A stretch of DNA of 33,575 nucleotides from a virus (lineage: Duplodnaviria; Heunggongvirae; Uroviricota; Caudoviricetes): IMG/VR virus record IMGVR_UViG_637000261_000005. One strand, 5' to 3'. The position numbers and the translations under genes are program-made. Shown here piece by piece: positions 846 through 23,274 of this stretch. The notes beneath the pieces are model-generated. The model saw only the letters and a program-made list of their open reading frames with translations. It ran no database searches and was not told the DNA's origin. How positions within the stretch are numbered: position 1 is the first letter of the stretch; each line of letters starts with the position of its first letter.

Positions 846-1708
846 GCTTAGTCAGCCGTTGTCTCCGGGTGTCGCGTGCGCAGTTGCACGTCATTCTCAG
901 ACGAACCGATGACTGGATGGATGGCCGCCGCAGTCGTCACACTGATGATACGGATGTGCTTCTCCGTATACACCATGTTATCGGAGAGCTGCCCACGTAT
1001 GGTTATCGTCGGGTATGGGCGCTGCTTCGCAGACAGGCAGAACTTGATGGTATGCCAGCGATCAATGCCAAACGTGTTTACCGGATCATGCGCCAGAATG
1101 CGCTGTTGCTTGAGCGAAAGCCTGCTGTACCGCCATCGAAACGGGCACATACAGGCAGAGTGGCCGTGAAAGAAAGCAATCAGCGATGGTGCTCTGACGG
1201 GTTCGAGTTCTGCTGTGATAACGGAGAGAGACTGCGTGTCACGTTCGCGCTGGACTGCTGTGATCGTGAGGCACTGCACTGGGCGGTGACTACCGGCGGC
1301 TTCAACAGTGAAACAGTACTGGACGTCATGCTGGGTGCGGTGGAACGCCGCTTCGGCAACGATCTTCCGTCGTCTCCAGTGGAGTGGCTGACGGATAATG
1401 GTTCATGCTACCGGGCTAATGAAACACGCCAGTTCGCCCGGATGTTGGGACTTGAACCGAAGAACACGGCGGTGCGGAGTCCGGAGAGTAACGGAATAGC
1501 AGAGAGCTTCGTGAAAACGATAAAGCGTGACTACATCAGTATCATGCCCAAACCAGACGGGTTAACGGCAGCAAAGAACCTTGCAGAGGCGTTCGAGCAT
1601 TATAACGAATGGCATCCGCATAGTGCGCTGGGTTATCGCTCGCCACGGGAATATCTGCGGCAGCGGGCTTGTAATGGGTTAAGTGATAACAGATGTCTGG
1701 AAATATAG
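803..1708 (+). CDS. insD: IS2 transposase OrfB (InsD), DDE catalytic domain
   Basis: 301-aa ORF overlapping insC in another frame; sequence recognised as IS2 InsD. Confidence 0.9.
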
Positions 1709-1719
1709 GGGCAAATCCA

Positions 1720-1915
1720 ACGGGATGCCCTCTGATGAGTGAATGGGGGAGGCGTGCTTTGAAGTGAATTTGTGGAAGGCTTCCAGTGTTGAGAAACATA
1801 CGCCGCATTCTAGATTGTTACACTGATAATACTTTTGTCTCACGGTGTTTGAATCATTTTCCGGACGACTGGTGCGGATACGGGCAGATGCGCCACAAAG
1901 CGGACAACGGAACAT
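1720..1915 (-). CDS. ogr: Ogr/Delta-type zinc-finger late-gene activator; native 3' end replaced by IS2 (ORF reads on into IS2 to a stop at 1679)
   Basis: MFRCPLCGASARIRTSRPENDSNTVRQKYYQCNNLECGVCFSTLEAFHKF... has the C-x2-C...C-x4-C pattern and MF-CPLC start of P2 Ogr; the last 11 codons ([11 protein letters not shown]) are reverse-complement IS2 terminus; AGAGAGG RBS before the ATG at 1913-1915. Confidence 0.75.
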
Positions 1916-2050: not shown

Positions 2051-5000
2051 TTATTCTGATGTCACTCTTTGCGAGTGAGCTATTTTTAAATCAGCGTTTC
2101 CTTCAAATACTATATTCAACTCATAGTTAAGAGTTAGCTTGAATTTATCTGAGTCACTTTTGATATTCTCTGAAGTGACATTTACTAACTTATTATTATC
2201 ATATTCTCTAATAATTAATTTAGTGAAGTAGTTATCCTTTACCACAAGAGAAAATGGTTGATTAACAAATGGTAAGAAGTAAACCTTACGGGTACCGGAT
2301 TCAGTAGTTATGTTCATAGAGCCATCATCATTTTTTCTCATTAGTTCTCTGAGGTTGGGATTATCGAAAAGCATACGATTATATTGCTGAAAGATCTCTT
2401 TACTCATCACAAGAACCAGTTTGCCAGCCAAGTCAGCAGATGATTTTATGTGATCAATCAACATATTGAAATCTTCTATTACGGTATGTTGCGAACAGCC
2501 AGTGCTAAATAAATTTGAAAGTATTATTCTCTGGATGTCCTTGAGAATTAAGTCTGCTTGAATATCACCTTCATTGATATAAGGGATGGATTCTATTCCT
2601 TCGGCATACGGTTCTTTATCTATCTTAATAGATATCTTATGTTTTGTGAAACAATCGCTAGCCTGCTTAAAATCAATAGATTTGAAAAGTGAAAGAGGGA
2701 GCGTTTTCTTGATGCGTTTACGAAGATGTTCTGATGTTTTACGTGCAGTGCTATCTAGTCGATGTACATCTATGGCAGCATCCTGAAGTCTCATATCAAG
2801 ATCTTTCTTTAGCATGTTAATATGCTCTTGAAGCAACTTTCTTAAGTTTTCTTTTTTTGTTTGGAGATCGTCCAATGTTAAAGTCAGCTTGATTTTAGTG
2901 TATTCGATGGAGTTACAAATTTTTGATAATACTCCAATGAGTCGTTGCTTCTCACGATATGTTATATAGTTGTTTTCTATTGCTTCTTTTATTTCTTTTG
3001 ATACGCTATCGTTCTTTTTAGAAAAAATTAATAATAGCTGAACCCATGATTGTTCCATATCAATAAATCCACAGTCAAAAACATTACTGTAAACTCTGCC
3101 CATCACCATGTCTGTTTTATCATAGTCACGTAAACGCCTTGCTAAACTATTCATCCACCCATTGTGCTCCATATTTTCAGACCATGTCCACAGGCAGATT
3201 CTAATTAATATCTTGATTAGTTGGCTTGCATTATCAATTTCTTCAGTGGGAGTTTCATATCCACCGGTTTGGTCAATAAGTTTACCCTCTAAAATAAGTT
3301 TAATGTAATGTGTCATTAGTTTGTCAGAAGTATTGATTCTTGATGTCAGATAAAGACATGTGCATATACGCATGTCAGTCAACGCATTTATGATGGCAAT
3401 ATTGAACCACTCTCTGTCTGAATTGAAGTTTAGTTTTTTGGATATGAAAAAACCCGGGTTAAAAAGCTGGCCTTTGTAACTGTATTTTTCTACCGAATGG
3501 CTGTCAATATTCATTGAGTGCTGCCATCGGTTAATAAGATCGACGGCTGTATCAATAGTAGAAGGATCGCGAGTCTGTGTTGCATCAATAATCATCGATG
3601 GAAGTTCTTGTAGTTGCGTTTTGCAAAATAATTCAAATAAATCTGAATTCTCTGTATTGCAGAAACGAAAGTTTATGCTTTCTTGATATTGCTCCCAAAC
3701 AGTGATATAGGTTCTTAATATACGATTATAACGTGAACGAAGCGAGGCATTTAAGAGTGATTGGTTGTTTCGGAACCATTCTGTTAATATTGACCATTGT
3801 GAACGAGTAATTCCCATATAGATACAAAGTTCATTGCTGATAAGATGTTTTCTATTATTGATAATACGCACTCCGCTCCAAAGACATAATTCAAAAAATC
3901 TTTCAGAAAGATTAATTTTATCCATGGAATTATTTGATATTTTATAAACTTCATCTGAAAACTCATATTGAAAACTCCGTTCAAATAATTCTGTAGTGAT
4001 CAGTAAGAAGTTATTGTTGGTATTATCATCTTGAAAAAAATACAAATCGCAGAGATTATTAAAGTTATTAATTAATGCAGAGATAGCATTGTCAAAACTA
4101 ATGAGATCAGAATCCCGCAGATACATATACGTATCTGCTGTTATAGCCTGCATTGTAAGACTTACGGAAAAATCTCCTCCTTTAATCGGAGCCCTATAAA
4201 AACATTGCTTAAGTATTTTTATTAATAAGCTGTCTGGTTTGATATTTTTAACGCTAAAAAGTATCTTACCCGTGGATTCTGTTTCTTTTGTACGATTATC
4301 ACCAATGACAAATGACGCAAAATGATTCTTCTTTTTTAGTTGGTAATTAATAAGATTAAGAGTAAGTTGAAAAGGACGGTGATATAAACTTAACTCATCT
4401 TCCTTAGAATAACTGCTAGCCACAGATATGTATTCTCCTTTGTAATCGGCTTGCGTGATTTCTAAATTTGAATAGTTATGTTTTTGATAGATAGGGTATA
4501 ACCTAAGCTTGGCTGAGATTTTGTTACAAATATGGGGCATTACTATTTCGAAGGCAATGTATCGCTTTATAATTATTTGCCGTTTTACATCATCAAGAAT
4601 TTCAAGACTCACGATAAAGAACCAAATAGAAAGAACTATGTTTATCAAAAGCCATAATATGCTGATTAGACAAGCTATACCATAAAGATAACTTCCAAAG
4701 ACAGTTTTAATTAGTACACTGAGAAGTATAAATCCTGATAAGAAAAGCCCGCTGAGTCCAGCAAGCATGAATCCTGAGTAACGCTGATAAGCAGTTTGGG
4801 CTATTTTTCTATCTGCCTTTTTTTGGAATAAGACACTTACTAAACCTATAACAAGGGGGTATACAATACCAATAATTGTCAATTGGCCACTTAAAATGGT
4901 TGTTTGCCATTCGGTTAATGAATGCCTAAACGGGAAATAATGTAAAAGATTATTTTTTATAAATAATTCGTTTAAATATCCAACATAAAGTAGTACAAAT

Positions 5001-5418: not shown

Positions 5419-6528
5419 TTATTCTGTTTCTGCTATCCATTCCGGGATTTTTGCTTCAAGTTCAAGCTGCGTGGTAAAGCCGCTGTTATCAATGGTGTGC
5501 TCGGCTTTTGCAATAGTCCAGTCCTGATAATCAATCTCGCTTTTAAAGCCTGTCACTGTGCCATGCATTTCGGGATAGAGTTCTGCACGACCACGCGCCA
5601 GCGTGATGGAGAATGATGCGGCTCCGCGTTGTAGCTGCTGCCACTTTGCCGCCGCTGCGCGTCTTGCTGCCTGCTCGTTCTGATAAGTCTTGCGTAACAC
5701 AAACACGTTGCCTTCCGCACCTTCCATATAGTCGCCTTCCCGACTGCTGCTTTTCTCCTTTTTGGGTTTTGGCGGTTTGCGGCGTTTCACGCTGACTTTT
5801 TTCTTTTTCCCGTAATTAAGATCAAGCCAGTAGGCGCGTACCCCCGTATACGCCTCGCGGTCAGCAATGCGGAACTGATGGCGATCGCCGCTGCTGCGTG
5901 TAATGGCGAACGAGGGCAACGGCTGCCCCTGTGCGTTCACGCCACCACCTGGCATGATGAATAACAGATTGCCGCTTTTTACCGTGGCGATTGCTCCCAG
6001 CATTTCCGCCATGCGCGTAAGAAAGGACATGTCGCTTTCTTCGGTCTGGTCGGCGTGGTCGATTTCGATATCCATCAGCATTTCGCTGATTTGCGGTTTC
6101 AGACCGTACCGATGAGTGATGGCGGATACCACACGCTCAACGGTCACATCATGCCAGGACACCTCACGTTTAACGTTAAATTCATCCCGAAAATCTGCGC
6201 TTCTGGCTGAAACAGTCAGCCTGTCCGGCGGTCCTTCGTGAGCGATTTCATCAACAATGTAAGTGCCTTTTTCTGTCAGCGGTTCCCCTTTCCAGCCAAT
6301 GAGAACCGTCAGACGCGCGCCCCGTGGCGGTAGCTGCAACTGACCATCCGCATCATCCAGCGTGATGGTGAGCTGGTCCGCCTCAAATCCCCGGTTGTCG
6401 GTCAGTTACAGGCTCATCAGGCGCTCCGCCACGCCTGACAGCGTTTTACCCTCCGAGAGAATATCAAAATCCGGCATTTTCACGGGGGCCGTGCCCTGAC
6501 TGAGCAATTGCATGGTGGTGTCGGTCAT
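5419..6528 (-). pseudogene. D: P2 gpD-like tail protein gene interrupted by an in-frame TAA at codon 41 (6406-6408)
   Basis: ATG at 6526-6528 with GGAGGGAG RBS; 40 codons (MTDTTMQLLSQGTAPVKMPDFDILSEGKTLSGVAERLMSL), then TAA, then the same frame continues LTDNRGFEADQLTITLDDADGQLQLPPRGARLTVLIGW... to 5419. Confidence 0.85.
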
Positions 6529-6584
6529 CTGCTCCCTCCCTGTGCGGCATGGTCGCATGTGCGTGCGGAGGGGGTTACTGCTTT

Positions 6585-6608
6585 TTGTTGTCGCCGTGGC
6601 GGGAGAAC
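6585..6608 (+). promoter_or_regulatory. Candidate activator-dependent late promoter element upstream of the sheath gene
   Basis: TTGTTGT-N12-AGAAC about 80-100 bp upstream of the FI start; the same motif recurs upstream of P at 25255-25278. Confidence 0.35.
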
Positions 6609-6685
6609 GGCGCAGGGGTGAGATTACGCGCGTGGTGGGTGATGATTGTTGCTGAATCATTTAACGGATACAAGGGGCTGAAGCT

Positions 6686-7870
6686 ATGAGTGAAACTCGT
6701 TTTCATGGTGCCCGTGTTACGGAGAATACCGACCTGGTAACAGCGATTAACGATGTTGATTCCAGCGTTATCGGTATCGTGGCAACGGCGGATGATGCGG
6801 ACGCGAAGCTGTTCCCGCTGAACAAGCCCACACTGCTGACCCGCGTCAATGACGTGCTGGGAAAATGCGGGACAACGGGGACGCTTTATCGTGCGCTTAA
6901 GGCCATCGCAGACCAGGTGAGCACAAAGGTGATCGTCGTTCGCGTGGCTGAACACAAAGAAGAAGACGGAAAGACGCAGGATCAACTGGTTATCGGTGGT
7001 TCTGAGGATGACGGCAGCTATACGGGGATGTATGCGCTGCTTGTTGCAGAGCAGGATGAAAGCATCGGATACCGTCCGCGTATTCTGGCCGCGCCGGAGC
7101 TGGACACGGAGGCGGTAACAAAATCCCTGTGCGTGATTGCAGATAAACTGCGCGCGTTTGTGTATGCCTCATGTCATGGCTGTAACACGATGGCCGAGGC
7201 AATTACCTACCGCCAGAAATTCAACGAACGTGAGGTGATGCTCTTATGGCCGGACTTCATCGCCTACAACCCGAAAAATGGCAAAAACGAAACGTTCCCC
7301 GCGCCTGCCTATGCGTGCGGCCTTCGTGCGTACATTGACCATGAACAGGGATGGCACAAATCGCTGTCCAACGTTCCGGTTAAAAATGTGCTGGGGATGT
7401 CGAGGCATGTGTTCTGGTCGTTGCAGGCCGAAGACAGCGATGCCAACAGCCTCAACGACAAAGAAATCACGACCATTATTCGTCGCAACGGGTTCCGCTT
7501 CTGGGGTAACCGCACACCGGAAACGAACGCCTACATCTTTGAGGTGTATACCCGAACCGCACAGGTGCTGGCTGATTCAATTGCGGAAGCGCAGTTTGAA
7601 ACCATCGACAGTCCACTGACGCCTGCGAATGTGAAGGATGTTATCAGTGCCATCAGGGCAAAACTGGATTCACTGGTGACTGCCGGGAAACTGATTGGCG
7701 CGGAGTGCTGGTATGACGTGGTGGATAACAGCACCACGGATTTACGTCAGGGACGTGTGCGTATTCGCTACAAATATACGCCCGTTCCGCCACTGGAAGA
7801 CATGGAGCTTTACCAGACGTTTACTGATGAATACTTTGAACCCGCATTTGCGGTGCTGGGAGGTGCCTGA
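6686..7870 (+). CDS. FI: Tail sheath protein (P2 gpFI-like)
   Basis: 394-aa ORF with conserved sheath blocks (KPRILA, LRAF, QGWHKSLSNV, IRRNGFRFWGNRT, YTPVPPLE). Confidence 0.9.
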   Translation: MSETRFHGARVTENTDLVTAINDVDSSVIGIVATADDADAKLFPLNKPTLLTRVNDVLGKCGTTGTLYRALKAIADQVSTKVIVVRVAEHKEEDGKTQDQLVIGGSEDDGSYTGMYALLVAEQDESIGYRPRILAAPELDTEAVTKSLCVIADKLRAFVYASCHGCNTMAEAITYRQKFNEREVMLLWPDFIAYNPKNGKNETFPAPAYACGLRAYIDHEQGWHKSLSNVPVKNVLGMSRHVFWSLQAEDSDANSLNDKEITTIIRRNGFRFWGNRTPETNAYIFEVYTRTAQVLADSIAEAQFETIDSPLTPANVKDVISAIRAKLDSLVTAGKLIGAECWYDVVDNSTTDLRQGRVRIRYKYTPVPPLEDMELYQTFTDEYFEPAFAVLGGA

Positions 7871-8380
7871 TGGCTGTGCCAAAACATCTTCGCTTTTTTA
7901 CGCTGTTTGTGGATGGTGAAAACGAAGTGGGTAATGTGACGTCCGTCACTCTGCCTAAGCTGACGCGCAAAACCGACAGCTACCGGGGTGGTGGCATGAT
8001 GGGTGCGGTAAGTATTGATCTCGGTCTGGACGACTCCGCGCTTGATGCGAGCTTTGTCATGGGGGCGCAGTTCGTGAGCTGTTCCTTAAGTATGGCGGCA
8101 CGATTGACGGCACGCTGCTGCGTTTTGCGGGTGAATACTACACCGATGCAGAAAGCGACCTGTATGAAGTCGAAATGCGCGGACGTGTGACGGAAATTGA
8201 TATGGGGGAAGCCAAACAGGGCGAAGCCACATCACACACTTACGCCATTAAAACACCTACTACAAGCTGAGTGTTAACGATCGCCCGTTGTGGGAGATTG
8301 ACCTGCTGAACTTCATTTACCGGAAGGACGGCAAGGACATTGTGCCCGATCGCATCCGTTCCGCGCTTGGGCTTGGCTGA
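7870..8380 (+). pseudogene. FII: Tail tube protein (P2 gpFII-like) split across three frames by two single-base deletions in homopolymer runs
   Basis: Frame 1 to about 8065 (...DASFVMG), frame 0 (GAVRELFLKYGGTIDGTLLRFAGEYY...HTYAIK) to 8250, frame 2 (TYYKLSVNDRPLWEIDLL...ALGLG) to the TGA at 8378-8380; shifts sit in G5 at 8061-8065 and A4 at 8250-8253. Confidence 0.8.
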
Positions 8381-8435
8381 TAAGTAATATGCTGGCGGCG
8401 CAGTGCGTCGCCTCTGACTGAAAAGGAGACAACAG

Positions 8436-8810
8436 ATGAAAGACATCGATACTGAAACCCGGAATAACACCGTGGCGGATAATGTGACGGCAGTTGAGGA
8501 TATGGCTGTCGAACGTGGCGTAAAACTGACCCGACCAATTGAGCGTGGTGCCGAAAAAATCACGTATGTGGAGATCACCGGGGCTATTGAGCAGGCTGGA
8601 TCCCTGCGTGGTCTGTCGCTGTCTGATGTGCTGAATCTGAAAGCGGATACCATGTTCACGCTGTTGCCTCGCGTGACCTCGCCACGACTGGATGAAGTGA
8701 TGATTAAAAAAATGTCGTCACGCGATTTTATTCAGTTGTGCGCTGTGGCTGTAAATTTTATGAGCGAGCCAGACTCTGGCGCGAAGAGCGTGCAGGAGAC
8801 GGCAGCGTAA
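8436..8810 (+). CDS. E: Tail assembly chaperone (P2 gpE-like)
   Basis: 124-aa ORF with AAAAGGAG RBS, between tube and tape-measure genes. Confidence 0.75.
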   Translation: MKDIDTETRNNTVADNVTAVEDMAVERGVKLTRPIERGAEKITYVEITGAIEQAGSLRGLSLSDVLNLKADTMFTLLPRVTSPRLDEVMIKKMSSRDFIQLCAVAVNFMSEPDSGAKSVQETAA

Positions 8811-8923
8811 TCACCCTGGTGTGCTTTGAGCACATCGAAGATCTGGTGGCGGATATTGCCGCCATTTTTAACTGGTCGCCCGCCGAAATCTTCATGATGA
8901 CGCCCGGCGAAGTGGTTAGCTGA
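8436..8923 (+). CDS. gpE+E' extended chaperone made by programmed -1 frameshift at A_AAT_TTT (8753-8759)
   Basis: Heptamer fits X_XXY_YYZ in the E frame; the -1 frame is open from there (YERARLWREERAGDG...) to a TGA at 8921-8923, 2 nt before the T ORF; position matches the conserved E/E' (G/GT-type) frameshift of myophage tail operons. Confidence 0.5.
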
Positions 8924-8924
8924 C

Positions 8925-11768
8925 GTGAGCGGGCGGCACTTCGTAGCGGGAATGCAGACAATGAAGACTCTTGATATCCGGGTCGCTTTCAGCGCCGTTG
9001 ACAGGCTGACCCGGCCTGCCGAAAACGCCCGCCGCCTGATGGGGCAGTTTGGTGACTCCATCCAGCGAACGCAGGGGGCGATCAAAAATCTCGAGCGTCA
9101 GGCGCGATCATTTGAGCGCGCCCGTGACGCTGTCAGTAAAGCGGATGCTGGCATCGTGAAAGCACGACGCCAGCTTAACGCCCTTAATCAGTTACAACGC
9201 ACGGGTACAGTGCTCAGCGAAAAACAACAAAAGCTGATGCAGCAGTTAAGCACCCGGCTTGAACGCCTGAATGAATCGCGCACACGGGAAATTCAGAAAA
9301 TGCGGGAGCTTGGCGGAGAGCTGAAACGCCACGGCATTTCCCTGACAGGTAGCGATAACACCATCCAGCAGGCCATCAGACGCACCGAACAGTACAACAA
9401 CCAGCTTGAACGCGAACGGCAGGCGCTTGCGCGTGTAACACGGGCGCGTGAGCGGTATTCGCGCGCGCAGGAAACAGCGGGAAAACTGAAAACAGGTGGT
9501 GCGCTGGCAATTGGTGCGGCAGCGGCGGGCGGCTATGCTGCCGGGCGTTTTTTGCAGCCTGCGATCGGGTTCGGCAAAGAGATGTCCCGCGTTCAGGCAC
9601 TGACGCGAATCGACCAGAACAGCCCGCAGTTTAAGGCGCTGCGTGAGCAGGCGTTAAAACTTGGCTCTGAAACGCAGTTCACCGCAGGCGATGCCGCCAG
9701 TGGACAGGCATTTCTTGCAATGGCTGGCTTTACACCACAGGCCATTCAGGCTGCGCTCCCTGGCGTACTGAGCATGGCAACGGCTGGCGGTATGGACCTC
9801 GGTGAGACGGCGGATATTGGCTCAAATATTCTGACGCAGTTCGGTCTTTCTGCTGACCAGATGGACCGGGTCGGCGACACACTCACCGCAGCGTTTACCC
9901 GTACCAACACTGACCTTCGCGCACTGGGTGAAACCATGAAATATGCAGGTCCGGTGGCGGGTAAGCTGGGAATATCTCTGGAGCAGGCCGCAGCGATGGC
10001 GGGCGTGCTGGCGAATATGGGTATCAGGGGGAGTGATGCTGGTACGGCAATGCGTGCCAGCCTGGCTCGTCTGGCATCACCGCCAAAGGCGGCAGCAGAG
10101 GCGCTGAAAGAGCTTGGCGTGTCTGTCTCGGATGCCGGGGGCAAAATGCGCCCGATGGAGGATGTGCTGGCTGACCTTTATAAAGCTACCCGCAAATACG
10201 GGGAAGTTGACCGGGTATCGTTCTTTAAGGACATTGCCGGAGAAGAGGCTTTCACATCATTTATGGCCCTCGTTGATGCGGCAGGTGACGGCTCCTTACC
10301 CAAACTGAGAAAAGAACTTGAAGGCGCGCGCGGTGAGGCTGAACGCACGGCAAAGGTTATGGCCAACAACCTTGACGGCGATCTGAAATCACTCAGCAGT
10401 GCATGGGAAGGGTTGCGCATCCGCATTGCAGATCTGATTGACGGTCCGCTGCGTTCTGTCACGCAGTGGCTCACGCGTGTGGTATCAAAGGTGACGGCGC
10501 TGGCGCAGGCCCATCCCGCACTGACGCGCCAGCTACTGATTGCAGGCGGTGCATTGCTGGCAATGACTGCAACGGTTGGCTCGTTGTCGCTGGCTATTGG
10601 TGTGCTTGCTGGCCCGCTGGCAAAACTGCGTCTTGGTTTTTCCCTCCTGACCGGATCAATGAATGCTGTCAGGGTTCTGCCAGCACTATGGGGAATGGTG
10701 ACGGGTTCCGTTTCTTTACTGGGAGGCGCTATCGGGGCGTTGTTCAGTCCGGTTGGTCTTATCGTGGCTGCGCTTGCCGGAGCTGCCGTTCTTATCTGGA
10801 AATACTGGGATCCCATCAGGGCATTTTTTGCCGGGGTGTTCAGCGGGATTATGGAAAGGCTGACCCCGTTGCGCGAAACCTTTGAACGGTTTGGTCCTGT
10901 TTTTGACGCAATCGGGAGTGGGATCAGCCAGGTGTTTAACTGGTTTAAATCGCTGCTGTCACCGATGGAGTCCAGCAAGGAAACTCTGGATAAATGTACC
11001 AGTGCTGGCGAGATATTCGGTAACGTTCTTGGCGGTGCGTTACAACTTGTTCTGACACCTGCAAAAATGTTGCTGGATACGCTGGCGTGGATACTTGAAA
11101 AGCTTGGTGTGCTTCCGGATGAAGCGGAAAGGGCGCGCAAGAAAATCGAAGACGCACAGCGTGCGGCCATTCTTCAGGACAAGGTTGCCTTGCTTCAGGG
11201 GGATCTGGCGAAAATCAATCCGCCGAAGCCTGTGGAAAATGGCAATGGCACCGGAGGTGATAACCCCAAAGACAATAAACCGCTCACAGACAGCAATACC
11301 GGTACGCTGCGCAGACTCAGCAAAATTGCTGATAACACAGGTAAGCTGGTTGAGGAGACGAAAAAACGCATTGGCCCCGGCGATATTGTCTTTAAAAACC
11401 TGCCCCGAGCACTTGCTGTTCGTGGGGAGTGGCAGGAGCGGAAGATTGCGCAGGTCAGTAAGCCTGCCCCCGCAATTAATATCACACCCGTGGTTCCGGC
11501 TCCGCTGCCTCCGGCGCTGGTCCCTGTTGTTGCAGCCAGCTCCCGCCCGGTGGCGGAGGCTATACGATCTCCAGTGGCATCAGTTCCTGTAACTTCCCGT
11601 AACCGGGAGCCTGTTGCCTTCGGATTTGGTGGTGAAATTCATGTTCATCTGCATAACGTTGTTACGCAGAATCCCCGCGAACTGGCGAAACTGGTCGGTG
11701 AAATGGTCAGGGCAGAAATGGAACGGCGCGCCCGTGCCGGGCGTGGCTGTTTTTACGATAAAGATTGA
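8925..11768 (+). CDS. T: Tail tape measure protein (P2 gpT-like); start uncertain (GTG 8925, ATG 8952 or 8961)
   Basis: 947-aa ORF with coiled-coil N-terminal region, Gly/Ala-rich hydrophobic central segments, located after E/E'. Confidence 0.9.
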   Translation: MSGRHFVAGMQTMKTLDIRVAFSAVDRLTRPAENARRLMGQFGDSIQRTQGAIKNLERQARSFERARDAVSKADAGIVKARRQLNALNQLQRTGTVLSEKQQKLMQQLSTRLERLNESRTREIQKMRELGGELKRHGISLTGSDNTIQQAIRRTEQYNNQLERERQALARVTRARERYSRAQETAGKLKTGGALAIGAAAAGGYAAGRFLQPAIGFGKEMSRVQALTRIDQNSPQFKALREQALKLGSETQFTAGDAASGQAFLAMAGFTPQAIQAALPGVLSMATAGGMDLGETADIGSNILTQFGLSADQMDRVGDTLTAAFTRTNTDLRALGETMKYAGPVAGKLGISLEQAAAMAGVLANMGIRGSDAGTAMRASLARLASPPKAAAEALKELGVSVSDAGGKMRPMEDVLADLYKATRKYGEVDRVSFFKDIAGEEAFTSFMALVDAAGDGSLPKLRKELEGARGEAERTAKVMANNLDGDLKSLSSAWEGLRIRIADLIDGPLRSVTQWLTRVVSKVTALAQAHPALTRQLLIAGGALLAMTATVGSLSLAIGVLAGPLAKLRLGFSLLTGSMNAVRVLPALWGMVTGSVSLLGGAIGALFSPVGLIVAALAGAAVLIWKYWDPIRAFFAGVFSGIMERLTPLRETFERFGPVFDAIGSGISQVFNWFKSLLSPMESSKETLDKCTSAGEIFGNVLGGALQLVLTPAKMLLDTLAWILEKLGVLPDEAERARKKIEDAQRAAILQDKVALLQGDLAKINPPKPVENGNGTGGDNPKDNKPLTDSNTGTLRRLSKIADNTGKLVEETKKRIGPGDIVFKNLPRALAVRGEWQERKIAQVSKPAPAINITPVVPAPLPPALVPVVAASSRPVAEAIRSPVASVPVTSRNREPVAFGFGGEIHVHLHNVVTQNPRELAKLVGEMVRAEMERRARAGRGCFYDKD

Positions 11769-11774
11769 GGAGTC

Positions 11775-12269
11775 ATGGCCATGATGATGATCTACGGCAT
11801 GTTTGTTTTTGAGCTGCGCACGCTGCCGCATCAGCAGTTACAGCAAAACAAAAGCTGGCGGCATGTGAAAAATGAACGCGTTAACCGTTCAGCAAGCTGG
11901 CAGTATATCGGTGCAGGTGATGATCGCATCGTTCTTTCTGGTGTGCTTTATCCTGAAATTACAGGTGGCGAAGTGTCGCTGTCGCTGCTGACTACGCAGG
12001 CGTATACAGGACGACCCTGGCCTTTGATTGATGGCGTCGGGCAGATTTACGGCATGTATGTCCTGACTGAAACGAATACGACCCGCTCCGAGTTTGATCG
12101 CTACGGTAAGGCGAAAAAGATAGAATTTTCACTGACTCTTGAACGCTGTGATGAGGATTTGCGGGAGCGCCTGCAATCCTCATCGTTCAGTGATATGCTG
12201 TCCGGCTTCAAAGATAAGGTGACATCATCTCTTAACAGCGCGGCCAGTTCAGTTAAAGGGCTGTTCTGA
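11775..12269 (+). CDS. U: Tail protein U (P2 gpU-like)
   Basis: 164-aa ORF directly after the tape-measure gene. Confidence 0.8.
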   Translation: MAMMMIYGMFVFELRTLPHQQLQQNKSWRHVKNERVNRSASWQYIGAGDDRIVLSGVLYPEITGGEVSLSLLTTQAYTGRPWPLIDGVGQIYGMYVLTETNTTRSEFDRYGKAKKIEFSLTLERCDEDLRERLQSSSFSDMLSGFKDKVTSSLNSAASSVKGLF

Positions 12270-12278
12270 TTTAACACA

Positions 12279-12308
12279 AAAACCGCTAATGGTCAGATTA
12301 GCGGTTTT
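12279..12308. terminator. Bidirectional palindromic terminator shared by convergent U and invertase genes
   Basis: Perfect 12-bp inverted repeat AAAACCGCTAAT/ATTAGCGGTTTT with 6-bp spacer; overlaps the invertase stop codon (12298-12300). Confidence 0.5.
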
Positions 12309-12915
12309 CATTTTCCTGAGTCTGCCCGGTTGTTTCTTCAGTCTGTATATCGCCTACAGGGTGATAACGATAAATCGTCGATGTGCCAATGCCGTAAATT
12401 ATTGCCAGTTGTTTTCTGTCGTGCCCGTTTTTGATTAGCCTTGCTATTTGCTCATGCTGTTCTTTTGTCAGCTTCGGTCGACGTCCGCCTGTGCGCCCCC
12501 TTGCGCGCGCTGCCGCCAGCCCGGCCAGTGTACGTTCAACAATTAATTCACGTTCCATTTCAGCCAGGGCACCCATCACGTGGAAGAAAAAACGCCCCAT
12601 TGGAGAAGATGTGTCTATGCTGTCGGTCAGACTGCGAAAATTAATCCCTCGCTCCCGTAGTTCCCCGACGAGAGAAATCAGATGTTTCATGCTTCGCCCG
12701 AGGCGATCCAGTTTCCAGACAACCAGCGTGTCACCTTTTTGAAGGCGCTTTAAAGCGCGTTTTAATCCCGGTCGGTCTGTCTTTGTCCCGCTTAATTTAT
12801 CTTCAAATATTTGTTCACATCCTGCACAAACAAGAGCGTTTTGTTGCAGGTCTGTATTCTGGTCATTTGTTGATACCCTTACATAGCCAATCAGCACACT
12901 GAATCTCCCGTCCAA
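12298..12915 (-). CDS. pin: Serine DNA invertase (Pin/Gin/Hin/Cin family); likely true start GTG at 12895-12897
   Basis: LIGYVRVSTNDQNTDLQ...GDTLVVWKLDRLGRSMKHL...FFFHVMGALAEMERELIVERT... carries the catalytic Ser motif and conserved blocks of Pin/Gin; sits immediately outside crossover site 1. Confidence 0.9.
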   Translation of the reverse strand: MDGRFSVLIGYVRVSTNDQNTDLQQNALVCAGCEQIFEDKLSGTKTDRPGLKRALKRLQKGDTLVVWKLDRLGRSMKHLISLVGELRERGINFRSLTDSIDTSSPMGRFFFHVMGALAEMERELIVERTLAGLAAARARGRTGGRRPKLTKEQHEQIARLIKNGHDRKQLAIIYGIGTSTIYRYHPVGDIQTEETTGQTQENENR

Positions 12916-12951
12916 AAGCGCAAATCATGCCATGCAGGCCAGAAACGGCCA

Positions 12952-12977
12952 TTATTTAAAACCTCGGTTTACGAGAA
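12952..12977. other. hix/gix-like inversion crossover site 1
   Basis: TTATTTAAAACCTCGGTTTACGAGAA; inverted copy of site 2 (21/26 identical, core ACCTCGGTTTAC identical); imperfect internal dyad. Confidence 0.7.
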
Positions 12978-13673
12978 CTCGGCACAAGCGGGGAGAAAAT
13001 ACCGTTACTCAGTACAGCGAATACCTGGACCAATCGACAAACATTCAGCGGTGGCCTTTCTGGGGAACTGTCCGGCAATGCCGCTACTGCAACAAAGCTG
13101 AAAACAGCACGAAAAATTGCTGGAGTTGGTTTTGATGGTTCTAGCGATATCTCAATTAGTGCCAAAAATGTCAATGCATTTGCACTCCGACAAACAGGTA
13201 ATACTGTTAATGGTGATACATCCGTTGGATGGAATTGGGATAGTGGTGCATATAACGCCCTGATTGGTGGTGCATCTGCATTAATTCTTCACTTTAATAT
13301 AAATGCTGGTAGCTGTCCTGCCGTACAATTCCGTGTGAATTATAAAAATGGTGGCATTTCCTACAGGTCGGCTCGTGATGGTTATGGGGTTGAATTACGT
13401 TGGTCAGATTTCTATACCACGACACGAAAACCTTCAGCGGGAGATGTTGGTGCATATACGCGGGCAGAATGTAACTCAATGTTTATTACAGGTATTCGCC
13501 TTGGCGGTCTGTCATCTGTTCAGACATGGAATGGTCCCGGCTGGTCTGACAGGTCAGGTTATGTCGTTACGGGTTCAGTTAACGGAAACCGTGATGAATT
13601 AATTGATACAACACAGGCAAGGCCAATTCAGTATTGCATTAATGGGACGTGGTATAACGCGGGGAGTATTTAA
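12966..13673 (+). CDS. Alternative tail-fibre C-terminal segment (Sv'-like), promoterless and without start codon in current orientation
   Basis: Open frame in register with site 1 (...TNRQTFSGGLSGELSGNAATATKL... to ...PIQYCINGTWYNAGSI); ends with the same INGTWYN motif as H; would fuse in frame to H after inversion. Confidence 0.65.
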   Translation, partial: GLRELGTSGEKIPLLSTANTWTNRQTFSGGLSGELSGNAATATKLKTARKIAGVGFDGSSDISISAKNVNAFALRQTGNTVNGDTSVGWNWDSGAYNALIGGASALILHFNINAGSCPAVQFRVNYKNGGISYRSARDGYGVELRWSDFYTTTRKPSAGDVGAYTRAECNSMFITGIRLGGLSSVQTWNGPGWSDRSGYVVTGSVNGNRDELIDTTQARPIQYCINGTWYNAGSI

Positions 13674-13675
13674 CG

Positions 13676-14209
13676 ATGATGCACTTAAAAAACATTACTG
13701 CTGGCAACCCTAAAACAAAAGAGCAATACCAGCTAACAAAGCAATTTAACATCAAATGGCTTTATTCAGATGATGGAAAAAACTGGTATGAGGAACAAAA
13801 GAATTTCCAGCCAGACACTTTGAAAATGGTCTATTACCATAACGGCGTTATTATTTGTATTGAAAAGGATGTTTCAGCAATTAATCCGGAAGGCGCAAGC
13901 GTCGTTGAATTACCTGATATTACAGCAAATCGCCGGGCTGATATTTCGGGGAAATGGTTGTTCAAAGATGGCGTAGTGATAAAGCGAACTTATACCGAGG
14001 AAGAGCAGAGGCAACAAGCGGAAAATGAAAAGCAAAGCCTGTTGCAACTTGTCAGGGATAAAACCCAGCTATGGGACTCACAGCTACGGCTGGGCATCAT
14101 TTCCGACGAGAATAAACAAAAATTAACCGAGTGGATGCTCTATGCGCAGAAAGTCGAATCTACAGACACCTCCAGCCTGCCAGTAACGTTTCCCGAACAA
14201 CCAGAATGA
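13676..14209 (+). CDS. Tail fibre assembly chaperone, alternative copy
   Basis: 177-aa [25 protein letters not shown]...; paralogous to the minus-strand copy at 14238-14766. Confidence 0.8.
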   Translation: MMHLKNITAGNPKTKEQYQLTKQFNIKWLYSDDGKNWYEEQKNFQPDTLKMVYYHNGVIICIEKDVSAINPEGASVVELPDITANRRADISGKWLFKDGVVIKRTYTEEEQRQQAENEKQSLLQLVRDKTQLWDSQLRLGIISDENKQKLTEWMLYAQKVESTDTSSLPVTFPEQPE

Positions 14210-14212
14210 GAG

Positions 14213-14232
14213 AAGGCCCGATATTGGGCCTT
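14213..14232. terminator. Hairpin between the convergent tail-fibre assembly genes
   Basis: AAGGCCC-GATATT-GGGCCTT inverted repeat followed by T-rich tract on plus strand. Confidence 0.4.
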
Positions 14233-14237
14233 AATTT

Positions 14238-14766
14238 TTACTCAGGCTTTTGTGGCCATTCGGGATTTGCTGTATCCACACGGCTGACCAGAACGCTGTA
14301 GCGTTCCCATGACTCCAGTCGTGTGCGTTCCTCATCCATCGCCATATTCAGCCTGACAGCGCGTTCCAGTGGCTGAATAACGCTTTCAGCTTCAGAAAGC
14401 AACGCGACCTTTTGTGATTCGGCCTGTTGTTGCTGTTCGTCTGCTGTATAAATCCGCTTAACCACAGTTCCGTCCTTAAACATCCACTTCCCTGAATCAT
14501 CGGCACGACGATTGGCTGTTATATCTGGAATCTCAACGACACTAAAGCCTTCGGGATTAAGTGTTGGGGCATCTTTGGTTATGGCAACAATAATATTATT
14601 TTCGTCGTATACAATCTTTATGGTGTCGTCCTGAAAGTTATTTACTTCCTCATACCAGTTTTTACCGTCTTCGGACCATAACCAGATAACATCAAAATTC
14701 TTTGTTAGCTGATATTGTTCTTTTGTTTTTGGATTTCCGGACTTAATATTTTTTAATATGCTGCAT
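14238..14766 (-). CDS. Tail fibre assembly chaperone (P2 gpG-like), currently expressed copy; N-terminus disturbed by 1-bp insertion in a T6 run (14749-14754)
   Basis: ATG at 14764-14766, 3 nt after the H stop, reads MQHIKKY-stop; removing one A restores [22 protein letters not shown]..., parallel to the alternative copy. The ORF track frame extends upstream to 14846. Confidence 0.7.
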
Positions 14767-14769
14767 AAT

Positions 14770-16920
14770 TTACACCTGTGCGACGTTATACCATGTGCCA
14801 TTGATGTATTTTTGTATTGGTCTGAAGATGGCTTCATCATCGCCATCTACTTCACCAATGATTCTTAATCCGGTAATTGCGTGTCCGGCTTTTTCATAAC
14901 GACCACCACGCGCCATCAATTGAACAACACGCGTACCCAGGCGAACATCTTTTACATAGCGTGAATCAAAATTCCCCCAGTTGCTGGGCTGTATCTGACC
15001 GTTAACAGAAAATATTACCGAGTTATCTGTATTTCGCTGGCTATAGAAATGCCATCCTGCCTCATTGCCTAACTCTGCAACTACTGGACGGGTTGAAGCA
15101 CCCCATAAATTAAACGTTGCATTCTTTGTGGAGTTGTTGGAGCTGGATAGCGTGAATTTTTTACCATCCCCGGCCTGAATATTTTTAAAAGCAATAGCCA
15201 CTCCATTCTGAAAGCGGAATACACGCTGACTATTAGCATAAACATCCAGAATACCGTCTCCATTCTGTTTAAATCCGGTGTCATTATCACCAAGAACAAT
15301 AGAGCTACCACCTAACGCATTCGTCGAACCAACTCCAAGACTGCCATTAATGACAGCATTAACAAGAATATTTAGTGCATCCCATTTCAGCGTCATCAGG
15401 TCTTTTGTTGTGGTGCTCTGGCGGCTTCTCCATTTGAAATATTCATTGCCGTTGTCGCCTGTTTCAAACCACATGTATGAATCAGTGTCACCATCGGCAT
15501 CATTTTTAAATCCAATCTTCGCCCAGTCAGTATTTCGAATCCAGGCAAGGATTGAGTCATTTTCAAAAGTAAGCCCACCGGACAAGGTATCGCCATTTTT
15601 TTGCACGGCGTTACCAGCCCTGTTTACCGTTTCCTGTAAACCGAGGTATTCGATAACGGCAGCAACGGTCGATTTCGCAAGAATATCCCGCCCGACTTTT
15701 GTCAGGGTTGCCAGGCTGGCGACATCATTCCCCGTAAAATACGGAAACCTGTCTGCCGCAGTAGCAAGCCCGGCCAGCGCCGTCAGGGTGGCATCTTTCG
15801 GTTGCTTACCCGCAAGCGCGTTAGTCATGGTGGTCGCAAAATTCGGGGCGTTTCCCAGCGCCGCCGCTAACTCGTTCAGCGTATTCAGTGCGTCAGGTGA
15901 CGAATCTACAAGGGCGGCAATCGCAGCCATAACGAAAGCCGTGCTTGCGATTTGGGTATTATTCGTTCCCTGTCGCGCAGCTGGCGTTGTTGGCGTTCCG
16001 GTCAGCGCAGGACTGTTTAAGGGCGCTTTCTTGTTCGTTTCATCCATTACCGCCTTAACCGCTTTCGATGTCGCGGCCAGTGTTTCAGACGTGCTGTTGG
16101 TGGCACTACTGAGCTGGACTATCCCTTTTTGTGCCGTCGTGGCGTCCTGAGCGGTATATTTTGCGTTAGCAAGGTCATACGCGGCCTTTACTGCTTTCGG
16201 CGTTGCAGCCTGCGTTTCAGACGTGCTGTTGGTGGCGCTACTGAGCTGGACAAGGCCTTTTCGCGTCGTGCTGGCATCCTGCGCAGTATATTTACCGTTA
16301 GCAAGATCATACGCGGCCTTTACTGCTTTCGGCGTTGCAGCCTGCGTTTCAGACACGCTGTTAGTGGCGCTACTGAGTTGAACAAAGCCTTTTGCGGTCA
16401 GCGAGGCGTCCGGGTGACGTCGTGACTGTTCATGCTCTTTCAGTTTGTCATCCACGTAATCCACTGTGGCCATCACCATGGTGTTGTCCACGGTAAGCGC
16501 CACGGTGGCAGTGCTGGATACGGTCAGAATGGTGCGAAATGTTTGTGCACGACCGGACCCTTCGGCAACGGCTGGCTTGTAACTTTCGGCAGTATTTCCC
16601 ACCGCGATTAAATCGCCGTGCTCATCAAATACACCAATTTCCCGGATCCAGAATCCGCCCGTTTCAGGAGGAATAACCAGCTCCGCAATAATGCGGTTCT
16701 GATGTGTTGCGTCCAGGATGACGCGATTAACAGTATGTCGCCACACCTCATGCACCAGACGGGTCTGCTTACTGTCTGGTGTGGGCAACGTGCCGCCACC
16801 GTCGCCCACGGCCATATGAGTCAGGCGGACAGGCTTACCATCTGGCGCGGCTACCTGAGCTAATTTTTTTGCACCCGTATCGGTGATAATGGTTTTAAAT
16901 TTTCGTGTTGTGGTACTCAT
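14770..16920 (-). CDS. H: Tail fibre protein (P2 gpH-like); C-terminal part (14770 to about 15643) lies inside the invertible segment
   Basis: 716-aa ORF with tandem fibre repeats and C-terminal ...[11 protein letters not shown]; crossover site 2 is within codons ...VIEYLGLQE.... Confidence 0.9.
15631..15656. other. hix/gix-like inversion crossover site 2, inside gene H
   Basis: TTCCTGTAAACCGAGGTATTCGATAA; reverse complement TTATCGAATACCTCGGTTTACAGGAA matches site 1. Confidence 0.7.
16036..16401 (-). repeat. Three tandem ~132-bp (44-aa) repeats within H
   Basis: Protein repeats KG[24 protein letters not shown]...DLAN-x-KYTAQDA at H residues about 174-295; near-identical nucleotide copies visible. 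Confidence 0.6.
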
Positions 16921-16922
16921 GC

Positions 16923-17453
16923 TTAATCGCCTGGATAAATGGTAATAACTTCACCGTCATAAGTTGCCGCCGCTGCGAAAATATCCCCCGGAATTTCCTG
17001 AATGATATTCAGCCCTGTCATGTGGCGGCTGACCGGGCGGGCATCAGCAATCAACCGCTCCATTTCCAGATACATTTCCTCCGTCACGCCACTGTCCAGC
17101 GTGCCGACTTCAACGGTAAATGTTCCCGGTTCTCCGCCGAACTCCCACCACTCAGACACGCGAATGAGGTATCCCAGCGGCTCAATGGCCCGGCGCAGTG
17201 CGCTGATGGTCCCTTTGTGTCGGTGTATCAGCCATGCATCACGAATAACCTGTCGCTTTGTCTCTTCCGGCCAGTTGCGATCCCAGCGGTCAACGGAAAA
17301 CGCCCAGGCGAGATAAGGCAGCAGATGCACCGGGCAGGTGTCCGGCGACCACAGCGTGTTGAGGTCTACCGGAATGTCTGTAATGCGTGTTCCGACGGCT
17401 TCGGCACAACGCATGAAATTGCTGGCTGATGGTGGTAACAACGAATTACTCAT
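16923..17453 (-). CDS. I: Baseplate assembly protein (P2 gpI-like); ATG 17451-17453 preferred over GTG 17486
   Basis: Position between H and J; start overlaps J stop by 8 nt. Confidence 0.75.
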   Translation of the reverse strand: MSNSLLPPSASNFMRCAEAVGTRITDIPVDLNTLWSPDTCPVHLLPYLAWAFSVDRWDRNWPEETKRQVIRDAWLIHRHKGTISALRRAIEPLGYLIRVSEWWEFGGEPGTFTVEVGTLDSGVTEEMYLEMERLIADARPVSRHMTGLNIIQEIPGDIFAAAATYDGEVITIYPGD

Positions 17454-18342
17454 TGCGTCCACCTTCGCTGATGGTGAATGACTCACAGCGCGCCGCCTGT
17501 ATGTCGCTGATGGCCATATTCTGTGTGGGTTCGATTATCTCCACGCGTTGCACACCGTGCACATGCAGTGCGGCAGCAATGGCGGACAACGCCACGTCCT
17601 GACCGATAAGCCCCTGCTCAGCCAGCCACTTCCTGAACGACGATTCAGCCGCGGCCAGAATAGGTTCGGATTCCGGGCCGGGGTAAAAGTACAGTTTTGC
17701 ATTCAGCCGCCATGTCACGATTCTGGCACTCTGTACGGTCAGGCGGTCGGCCACCGGGCGGGTATCCTCTGCATTCAGAACGGCGCGAACGGTATTAAGC
17801 AACGCCTCCGTTGCTGTGCCGTCGCCCTCAGTGGACAGGATGGAAACCGTCACGTTGGCCGGAGACGGGCTGATGGCCCGCGCATCGCGTACCAGACCGC
17901 TGGCGCTGCGTGCAAAATACTCGTATGCACCTGACGGGCCAGCAACACTCAGACCGTCATATGCCCGTTGCGCCCGTAGTCTCAGCGAGGTGTCACTTTC
18001 CATCACTGCATCGGTGGTATCCGTTGCCGGAGTGATAACCAGGCGCTTTGTGTTCATATTGCCCGCGAGGTTGTCCAGGTCTGTCCCGGCGCTGTGGCTT
18101 AGCATGCAGGCGCGTGCACCCTCATTGACCCGCTGGCGTAACAGCATTTCACGAAACGACATGGTTTGAGCGATAACGTTAAGGGGTTCCGATTCCAGCT
18201 CCAGCGCGGCGGAAACGGCTTCACGCTGTTCGGCGGGATAGGACGCAATCATCATGGCCTTTGTGTCAGCCAGAATTGCCTCAAAGTCAGGCTCCGCGAT
18301 GATGGCGGGTTCCGGTAACTGTGAAAGGTCAACGGCAGGCAT
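17446..18342 (-). CDS. J: Baseplate assembly protein J (P2 gpJ-like)
   Basis: 298-aa ORF, synteny W-J-I. Confidence 0.8.
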   Translation of the reverse strand: MPAVDLSQLPEPAIIAEPDFEAILADTKAMMIASYPAEQREAVSAALELESEPLNVIAQTMSFREMLLRQRVNEGARACMLSHSAGTDLDNLAGNMNTKRLVITPATDTTDAVMESDTSLRLRAQRAYDGLSVAGPSGAYEYFARSASGLVRDARAISPSPANVTVSILSTEGDGTATEALLNTVRAVLNAEDTRPVADRLTVQSARIVTWRLNAKLYFYPGPESEPILAAAESSFRKWLAEQGLIGQDVALSAIAAALHVHGVQRVEIIEPTQNMAISDIQAARCESFTISEGGRNE

Positions 18343-18345
18343 GAT

Positions 18346-21620: not shown

Positions 21621-21622
21621 TG

Positions 21623-22326: not shown

Positions 22327-22349
22327 TCCTGAAAAAAAATCGGCGGTGG

Positions 22350-22395
22350 GTGCGCGGTGTAAACGGTCACGGAGTCAAACTGGAACACCGCGCAC
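22350..22395. other. Perfect 11-bp stem hairpin in the L-M intergenic region
   Basis: GTGCGCGGTGT (22350-22360) and ACACCGCGCAC (22385-22395) with 24-nt loop; a smaller palindrome CTGACGGGTCAG follows. Confidence 0.3.
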
Positions 22396-23229: not shown

Positions 23230-23274
23230 TTTTGCTCTCCGTTACAGGCGGGCATGATGCCCGCCGTGAGTTGA

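Follow-up and report, generated by a model that had tools for sequence, protein, structure and literature searches.

In bacteriophage P2, the F operon (pF: FI FII E E' T U D, followed by ogr) is co-directional with V to G, and D is its last gene, starting at the last base of U. In the viral DNA analysed here (IMG/VR record IMGVR_UViG_637000261_000005; the whole stretch of 33,575 nucleotides is hereafter the window), FI through U are flipped relative to P2, and D lies outside the operon, head-to-head with FI. This raises the questions of whether the order is a rearrangement of this genome, an assembly error or a native arrangement, and of how D is transcribed away from its operon.

Gene order and identity of the window

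The features of the tail region and its surroundings are as follows.

1679–1915, minus strand: ogr, late-gene activator with an Ogr/Delta zinc finger (Pfam Ogr_Delta 4.2e-14; blastn against P88; tblastn)
5419–6528, minus strand: D, baseplate hub (Pfam Phage_GPD; 97% identity to P88 D)
6529–6685: divergent D–FI spacer, 157 bp, proposed back-to-back late promoter
6686–7870, plus strand: FI, tail sheath, intact (Pfam sheath domains; 99% identity to P88 FI)
7870–8380, plus strand: FII, tail tube, broken (blastn, alignment, tblastn)
8436–8810, plus strand: E-like tail chaperone gene (tblastn with P88 E)
~8819–8974, plus strand: E' (GpE-family) frame, after E (ETEC4088 annotation mapped onto the window)
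8961–11768, plus strand: T, tape measure protein (tblastn; 98% identity to P88 T)
11775–12269, plus strand: U, tail protein, last gene of the plus-strand operon (Pfam Phage_P2_GpU 5.5e-39; tblastn)
12279–12308: bidirectional intrinsic-terminator-like hairpin between U and the invertase gene (terminator scan)
12298–12897, minus strand: Gin/Hin-type serine invertase (Pfam Resolvase and HTH_7, on 12298–12915)
12955–12977, plus strand: left gix-like site, with an inverted partner at ~15627–15655 inside H

Searching the window with P88 proteins (tblastn) placed FI, FII, E, T, U, P and Q on the plus strand, and D, the invertase, G, H, I, J, W, V, S and R on the minus strand together with the lysis genes, X, L, M, N and O; ogr shares the strand of D. 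Orthologues of D, FI, FII, E/E', T, U and Ogr/Delta, the late tail gene set of Peduoviridae, were all recovered (Pfam, blastp, tblastn). An earlier note, made from the sequence alone, had described the same layout. Its plus-strand FI-FII-E-T-U block (6686–12269) and minus-strand D and ogr agree with Pfam and tblastn, and its minus-strand assignment of the remaining late genes (O to H and the lysis genes) agrees with the P88 protein searches. The divergence that it reported between D and FI is the 157-bp spacer, and the palindrome at which it had the block converging on the invertase gene was recovered as a hairpin by the terminator scan. The P2 order that it took for comparison, with D last in the F operon, matches the annotation of NC_001895. 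D is not directly 3' of U on the same strand in the window, as it is in the canonical operon; it lies upstream of FI on the opposite strand, in line with the claim that it stands outside the FI operon.

The window is collinear with P88 over 5423–12972 (96% nucleotide identity, blastn) and, at 96–98% identity, over 5423–12972 and 15356–28589; the late regions of the two share 96–98% nucleotide identity. This comparison covers 28.9 kb of P88, with the early region partly checked. In ICTV practice, genera are delimited at about 70% identity over the genome. By its high identity and collinearity with P88 in the compared regions, the window classes as a P88-like prophage of E. coli, genus Xuanwuvirus, Peduoviridae. 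P88 itself (Xuanwuvirus P88, NC_026014), P884B11, Citrobacter phiSM and the O157 Sakai prophage Sp13 match it in genes, order and strands: D on minus, FI FII E E' T U on plus, and the invertase and fibre genes on minus; the strands annotated in P88 are those of the window.

Relative to the P88 group, the window copy has a D gene interrupted by a nonsense codon, frameshifted FII and N genes, an IS2 and a cargo insert. The D lesion is an in-frame TAA at 6406–6408 (codon 41), where P88 and ETEC4088 encode Ser, and FII has lost one nucleotide at two places, first within a run of six G residues near 8061. The single IS2 occupies ~400–1720 (blastn against P88, Pfam). The insert places 3.47 kb between D and ogr, whereas ogr follows D after 42 nt in P88. 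The damage in D and FII was absent from the earlier note, as was the apparently complete back-to-back late promoter in the spacer described below.

A fixed order in relatives and the candidate causes of inversion

The window is collinear with the isolated phages P88, P884B11, phiSM, PhiR44_2 and Chuche. At least 80% of the query is covered in one place by 13 phage records, and at least 80% of the whole 8.1-kb query by 1102 complete E. coli genomes. A 756-nt junction probe found the D–FI junction intact and contiguous in 1358 of 5426 complete E. coli genomes, about one quarter. The same order recurs in 80 of 80 IMG/VR relatives, in 41 species-representative genomes across Enterobacterales and in the more distant Salmonella SEN4 (Senquatrovirus), Serratia KSP20 and Klebsiella Kp4848-1 (Reipivirus), which differ from the window in their FI (55–71% identity) and in having no invertase next to U.

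The orientation of FI–U is thus a real, native and fixed order and not a rearrangement of this genome. Several frameshifts in the window copy could hint at low-quality sequence and a block mis-oriented in assembly, a possibility that the earlier note had raised and that identical junctions in independent complete genomes and isolated phage genomes effectively exclude.

We examined the resident invertase as a cause of the order. Its region shares 93–96% nucleotide identity with the gin genes of Mu and D108 and, as in the G segment of those phages, gix-like sites flank a fibre segment, here an invertible stretch of ~2.7 kb (about 12965–15643). Gin-type gix/hix-like sequences occur in the window only at 12955–12977 and ~15627–15655, with none at 6529–6685 or 12270–12310, and no inverted repeat joins the two ends of the FI–U block. 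The block thus lacks the inverted 26-bp sites that bound an invertible segment at both ends. Nor do relatives display both of its orientations: all 80 IMG/VR relatives agree, as do 1358 of the 1377 E. coli genomes that matched the junction at all (the other 19 include a 36-nt partial match). The invertase serves the tail-fibre segment and not the FI–U block; we rejected invertase-mediated inversion of the block, which has neither a third gix/hix-like site nor inverted repeats at its ends. The order is also independent of the invertase, since SEN4, KSP20 and Kp4848-1 have it without an invertase next to U.

Insertion sequences fare no better. A search of the window for paired IS copies returned the single IS2, ~5 kb from the FI–U block and nowhere near its ends, so inverted copies of one element do not flank the breakpoints; IS-mediated inversion was likewise rejected. 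P88 and VG38-53E1 share the order and lack this IS2. A recent inversion in this genome, by a Gin-like invertase acting on cryptic sites or by IS recombination, might be suspected from the invertase gene abutting the block and the IS2 in the window, yet the confinement of gix-like sequence to the fibre segment, block ends without inverted repeats, a lone and distant IS2, and the same order in 1358 E. coli genomes and in invertase-free clade members such as SEN4 leave it with virtually no credibility.

The earlier note had inferred that neither the resident invertase nor IS recombination explains the order, and the absence of gix sites, inverted repeats and paired IS copies bears this out. Its statement that 6529–6685 holds no IS copy or hix-like site is correct for that interval, but the window does contain an IS2. 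It had proposed either an inversion or a different native arrangement: for this genome the native arrangement holds, and an inversion is tenable only if it happened long ago, in the ancestor of a clade. Comparison with related prophages and isolated phages, the check that it suggested, returned the same order throughout, and a stable trait of isolated phages, IMG/VR relatives, E. coli prophages and distant phages contradicts a rearrangement particular to this genome.

Because the order is normal and fixed in a large P2-like branch, the finding is an ordinary one and not a recent rearrangement. A search of the accessible literature found no paper describing this order or a D/FI promoter. The result matters mostly as a correction: the branch of P88, SEN4 and KSP20 has the inverted order as its standard layout, and annotators of P2-like prophages should not call it rearrangement, misassembly or decay.

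Origin of the inverted order

A species-level genome scan, with loci classified by tblastn, recovered 44 loci with the inverted order. In these, D is encoded on the strand opposite to FI, ~1.25–1.3 kb upstream of it (1.7 kb in one outlying locus), and has ogr after it; U and T share the direction of FI, and J/G, again on the other strand, come past U. An invertase is present in 8 of the 44. All 40 loci with a P2-type FI have the canonical order, and FI identity separates the two orders perfectly, at least 55% identity to the window corresponding to the inverted order. Outside Enterobacterales, the six loci in which D was found have a P2-type FI and are canonical (three from Acinetobacter and one each from Paraburkholderia, Collimonas and Solimicrobium). 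The inverted-order loci are monophyletic in neighbour-joining trees of FI, FII, U and D, and rooting these trees on Acinetobacter leaves them nested as a single clade.

A single ancient inversion most likely produced the order, as parsimony with few outgroups suggests. This event would have taken in the pF activator site and FI through U, with breakpoints at the U/D junction and upstream of the pF dyad, and would have put a dyad-symmetric Ogr-binding site beside the 5' end of D.

The direction of change comes only from outgroup parsimony, which leaves some room for the opposite polarity, a P88-type order that is ancestral and a co-directional P2-type operon that is derived. The canonical loci from Acinetobacter, Paraburkholderia, Collimonas and Solimicrobium and the nested position of the inverted-order loci both argue against this polarity, which we regard as very unlikely.

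Only slightly better placed, and still improbable, is module replacement, in which the ancestor of the clade would have taken up FI–U as a foreign cassette, integrated by chance in reverse orientation. Phages do exchange tail modules, and E and T are further from P2 (31–33% identity) than the other genes. Divergence between P88 and P2 is nevertheless uniform across the late region (FI 46%, U 46%, D 49%, P 44%, Q 47%; blastp), and every compared late gene found its match (most at 36–55%, range 26–95%). FI, FII and U within the block stand at 42–46% identity to P2, and D, P, Q, N and V outside it at 41–49%; for the F operon orthologues FI, FII, U and D, amino-acid identity is 42–49%. The block genes have their closest homologues in the P2 family, and the clade recovered by the trees of FI, FII and U, which belong to the block, is also the one recovered by the tree of D, which does not. 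A single inversion of resident genes remains the preferred origin.

The D–FI spacer as a predicted late promoter

TGT-N12-ACA is the consensus of the late-promoter activator site, and in Smp131 the promoters PP' and PO' share one 18-bp site read both ways (PMC3931495). Sites of this type lie ~55 bp upstream of predicted starts, as in Peduoviridae late promoters, at two places in the window (6589–6606 and 25259–25276). The predicted elements are as follows.

~6542, minus strand: predicted D transcription start, followed by the Shine–Dalgarno sequence GGAGGG and then the ATG at 6528
6549–6554, minus strand: −10-like hexamer GACCAT of the proposed D promoter, 34 nt beyond the dyad
6589–6606: single Ogr-type dyad TGTCGCCGTGGCGGGAGA (TGT-N12-AGA), centre 6597.5 (dyad-anchored table; position weight matrix, PWM, 18.0 bits)
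6641–6646, plus strand: −10-like hexamer GATGAT of the FI promoter, 34 nt beyond the dyad; predicted start ~6653
25259–25276: the other strong late-promoter dyad, in the divergent O/P spacer (top PWM match, 19.5 bits; geometry)

The D–FI dyad departs from the consensus at one position. A PWM derived from distant relatives picked only the D/FI and O/P spacers within the window, and its score at 6589–6606 exceeds the shuffle maximum of 13.5 bits. P2 pF likewise has a TGT-N12-ACA-type site upstream of FI, at the same distance to the −10. The closest parallel is P2 pP/pO, which has one annotated activator site (3057–3087) and starts at 3016 and 3127. There, as in the D/FI spacer, a single dyad lies between divergent genes with −10-like hexamers 34 nt beyond each end, and starts fall at the dyad centre ±55.5, a position that for D/FI is predicted. 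This rule reproduces the P2 starts of NC_001895 (3016 and 3127 exactly; 17625 against an annotated 17626–17628). The O/P spacer of the window has the layout of pP/pO; the D/FI spacer differs in serving D and FI instead of P and O, with predicted activity.

This geometry is conserved. The D–FI spacers of SEN4, KSP20 and Kp4848-1 (136–193 bp) contain a perfect or near-perfect TGT-N12-ACA dyad, and the clade spacers examined have one dyad each. Of 45 distinct spacers, 42 have a −10-like hexamer at exactly 34 nt past the dyad towards FI, 41 have one at this distance towards D, and 40 have both, counts that overstate independence because the spacers are phylogenetically related; the dyad finder was mis-anchored in 3–4 loci (L109, L111, L112, L114). 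In canonical loci, the left side of pF has such a hexamer in 1 of 39, a crude control only, since the finder is unreliable for about half of these loci owing to longer leaders or different sites. One dyad, equidistant −10 elements and divergent genes, the features of a back-to-back late promoter, are thus combined in 40/45 spacers against 1/39 in the control.

D therefore appears, from spacer sequence and geometry, to have its own late promoter, back-to-back with that of the sheath gene and with predicted starts on both sides. In the clade, the 130–195-bp D–FI spacer would work as a back-to-back late promoter in which one TGT-N12-ACA site, centred ~55 bp from each start, drives FI–U rightwards and D, then ogr, leftwards.

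D could instead have a promoter that does not require Ogr, or a second activator site for itself, in which case the symmetry would follow from the compactness of the spacer. The D-side hexamers (GACCAT, AACTAT, AATCAT, GATCCT) are weak −10 elements, and the conserved CGCGCGCGCATG block beside them could be the site of another factor. Weak −10 elements are, however, general among P2 late promoters, and the P promoter of the window, too, has a GC-rich block of this kind before its −10. Each spacer has a single dyad, and although spacers differ in sequence and length, the offset remains exactly 34 nt on either side. A sigma-70 consensus scan returned no promoter within 6529–6685, which speaks against a consensus promoter for D but is uninformative for late promoters, since those of P2 lack a −35 element. 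We consider Ogr-independent transcription or a second site a minority possibility, though a more serious one than the alternatives for the origin of the order.

We return to the shared Ogr-type site. Jointly, a native fixed order of a deep Enterobacterales P2-like clade, a single inversion as its origin and a back-to-back late promoter between D and FI form a reading that we judge probable. With less assurance, though still on balance, we favour a further step, in which the ancient pF–FI–U inversion succeeded because the Ogr-binding site is a dyad able to activate in both directions. The flip would have carried this site to the 5' end of D and given the clade its second back-to-back late promoter, so that all late genes would run from two bidirectional Ogr sites, P|O...G and D|FI...U; S and V overlap in the clade, leaving no separate pV. 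A dyad-symmetric activator site may thus let an inversion split an operon with regulation kept and, if so, the clade is a tidy, testable example of such a site buffering an operon-breaking rearrangement. On a smaller scale, the conserved symmetric spacer predicts an Ogr-dependent D promoter that shares one activator site with pFI.

At its other end, FI–U transcription would stop at the hairpin 3' of U, which has 12 pairs and a 6-nt loop. With an A-run on its 5' side and a T-run on its 3' side, it could act on both strands, and a hairpin is present 3' of U in 32 of 41 clade loci.

Results and discussion

The window is a P2-like prophage, and the element belongs to the P88-like phages (Xuanwuvirus). 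Gene identity and strand were assigned via Pfam and by comparison with the proteins of phage P88 (NC_026014), giving the following layout:

1679-1915, minus strand, ogr (late-gene activator)
5419-6528, minus strand, D
6686-7870, plus strand, FI
7870-8380, plus strand, FII
8436-8810, plus strand, E
8961-11768, plus strand, T
11775-12269, plus strand, U
12298-12897, minus strand, Gin-type invertase
past the invertase, minus strand, G, H, I, J, W, V, S, R, lysis genes, X, L, M, N and O
further along, plus strand, P and Q

The divergent D and FI genes are separated by a spacer (6529-6685), and the convergent U and invertase genes meet at a 12-pair hairpin (12279-12308), which lies between an A-run and a T-run and can thus terminate transcription on both strands. 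In the P2 record (NC_001895), a single operon read from pF comprises FI, FII, E, E', T, U and D, with ogr following. These gene calls and the P2 order therefore confirm the earlier note's observation that, unlike in P2, FI-U lie opposite in strand to D.

The flipped block is a lineage trait rather than a rearrangement of the window genome. Isolated phages (P88, P884B11, Citrobacter Shae_phiSM, PhiR44_2 and Chuche) and a number of induced E. coli prophages align collinearly with an 8.1-kb region at 93-98% identity, and at least 80% of this region was covered in one piece in 1102 complete E. coli genomes. The P88 annotation itself places D on the minus strand, FI-U on the plus strand and the invertase on the minus strand. 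A 756-nt D-FI junction probe was contiguous in 1358/5426 E. coli genomes, including E2348/69 and O157 Sakai (prophage Sp13). Among IMG/VR loci sharing at least 98% FI identity, 80/80 had D positioned upstream of a divergent FI. The comparison with related prophages that had been suggested thus returned the same order in P88, IMG/VR relatives and E. coli genomes. The earlier note had left a choice between a ~5.6-kb inversion and a different native arrangement; this interpretation is supported in part, the native arrangement being the correct option. The inverted arrangement is already present in public, annotated phage genomes: the 2008-era GenBank record of KSP20 has a gpD-like gene (minus) adjoining a gpFI-like gene (plus). 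Our literature search found no paper commenting on the gene order or on a promoter for D.

We examined the depth of the trait by aligning FI against one genome per bacterial species and classifying the loci by tblastn. The inverted order was found in 44 loci (41 species plus SEN4, KSP20 and Kp4848-1), where D, opposite in strand to FI, lies ~1.25-1.3 kb to its left (1.7 kb in one outlier), ogr immediately past D, T and U co-directional with FI, and J/G past U on the opposite strand. They span Salmonella, Citrobacter, Enterobacter, Klebsiella, Kosakonia, Erwinia, Pantoea, Brenneria, Pectobacterium, Serratia, Providencia, Morganella and Xenorhabdus. Another 40 loci, with P2-type FI, were canonical, among them Acinetobacter (three loci), Paraburkholderia, Collimonas and Solimicrobium. 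Order tracked FI identity with zero exceptions across the 44 and 40 loci, and the inverted loci were monophyletic in neighbor-joining trees of the block genes FI, FII and U as well as in that of D, which lies outside. The most economical reading of these sequences is a single old inversion in the Enterobacterales branch of Peduoviridae, followed by vertical inheritance. Import of the block as a module is disfavored; P88 and P2 are roughly equally distant within the block (FI 46%, FII 42%, U 46% identity) and outside it (D 49%, P 44%, Q 47%, N 41%, V 47%). A change in the opposite direction, from the inverted to the canonical order, is likewise disfavored.

Neither of the mobile systems in the window explains the order, in agreement with the earlier note. 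The invertase region has 93-96% nucleotide identity to gin of Mu and D108, and the invertase adjoins U in only 8/44 inverted loci. The gix-like sequence TTTAAAACCTCGGTTTACGAGAA occurs once (12955-12977) and has an inverted partner within H (~15627-15655); the pair bounds a ~2.7-kb invertible fibre segment containing an alternative H C-terminus (~12965-13673, plus) and fibre-assembly genes (13676-14209, plus; 14238-14846, minus). No gix-like sequence was found at the FI-U block ends, which rules against the invertase, and an inverted-repeat search there returned only short pairs at chance level. The sole insertion sequence, IS2 (~400-1720), lies between hok (4-141, minus) and ogr and encodes InsC/InsD (480-845 and 803-1708, plus; NCBIfam 6.6e-82 and 8.5e-219). 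It was rejected as a cause, being missing from P88 and E. coli VG38-53E1, which nevertheless share the gene order. The slot between U and the fibre-assembly gene is variable (window 12270-12950; comparison loci L167 18551-19096 and L086 17583-17785), holding a Gin-like invertase in the window and P88 and a 'transferase' in VG38-53E1 and being empty in SEN4; it resembles the Z/fun slot of P2.

The D-FI spacer may act as a promoter in both directions. For 45 distinct spacers we aligned the 215 nt preceding FI and then anchored them on the best match to TGT-N12-ACA, the consensus of the four P2 late promoters (PMC3931495). Each of the 45 spacers contained one dyad (TGTCGCCGTGGCGGGAGA at 6589-6606 in the window). 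A -10-like hexamer, with A as its second and T as its sixth base, stood exactly 34 nt past the dyad. It was present on the FI side in 42/45 spacers (e.g. GATTAT, GAATAT; window GATGAT, 6641-6646), on the D side in 41/45 (e.g. AACTAT, AATCAT; window GACCAT, complement of 6549-6554) and on both sides in 40/45. On the D side, the hexamer is followed within ~20 nt by a Shine-Dalgarno sequence and then the start codon of D. As a control, only 1/39 canonical loci had such a hexamer left of the pF dyad. Placing starts at the dyad centre +/-55.5 reproduced the annotated P2 starts of P (3016) and O (3127) and gave 17625 for F (annotated 17626-17628); for the window, the predicted starts are 6653 for FI and 6542 for D. 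With a position weight matrix built from distant clade members only, the top two window matches scored 19.5 bits in the O/P spacer (25259-25276) and 18.0 bits in the D/FI spacer, against a shuffle maximum of 13.5. The third, inside FI (7419-7436, 14.0 bits), barely exceeds that maximum and is probably chance. The nearest functional precedent is P2 pP/pO, which share one listed activator site, and PP'/PO' of phage Smp131 are one 18-bp site read in both directions (PMC3931495). Given this geometry, the P2 rule, the matrix matches and the Smp131 precedent, we propose from sequence conservation and geometry only that the D-FI spacer would be a second back-to-back Ogr-dependent promoter. Novelty is low overall, and this idea is the only part that merits experiment.

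A stable hairpin follows U in 32/41 clade loci, consistent with FI-U as a closed transcription unit. Strong Ogr-type dyads in the window number just two, at 6589-6606 and 25259-25276, and the overlap of S with V (19271-19274) leaves no room for a separate pV promoter spacer. All late genes of the clade may run from two bidirectional sites, whereas those of P2 use three sites with four promoters.

Comparison with P88, ETEC4088 and VG38-53E1, all free of the following gene lesions, revealed that D codon 41 is a TAA (6406-6408), that FII (7870-8380) has lost single nucleotides at two places (the first within a G6 run), that capsid gene N (23275-24326) carries both a frameshift and a stop, and that M is shortened (22483-23229), lacking its last ~19 residues. 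These fall in essential genes; the IS2 insertion was also counted as a lesion. They reflect either a decaying prophage or sequence errors, and D function in the window copy is doubtful under either reading.

RefSeq annotates D (ETEC4088, L002 8220-9329; L167 11520-12320) as a 266-aa 'VgrG/Pvc8 family' protein from an internal start codon, adjoined by a small pseudo-CDS. The full 369-codon frame is open in ETEC4088, and the short form is an annotation inconsistency that might be taken for truncation. Other clade members carry inserts at the D-ogr junction (L088 7455-8615, plus; L111 7514-8764, plus; also L114), which are different uncharacterised single genes (386 aa and 416 aa) whose proteins had no Pfam or PADLOC matches. 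As different inserts occupy the same junction, it looks like a clade-specific cargo hotspot. L088 (NZ_JBQPOM010000071.1) is a contig assigned to 'Vagococcus sp. WN89Y', of a Gram-positive genus, and contains a P88-type prophage; the prophage FI is 97% identical to E. coli FI, and the assembly is likely contaminated or mislabelled.
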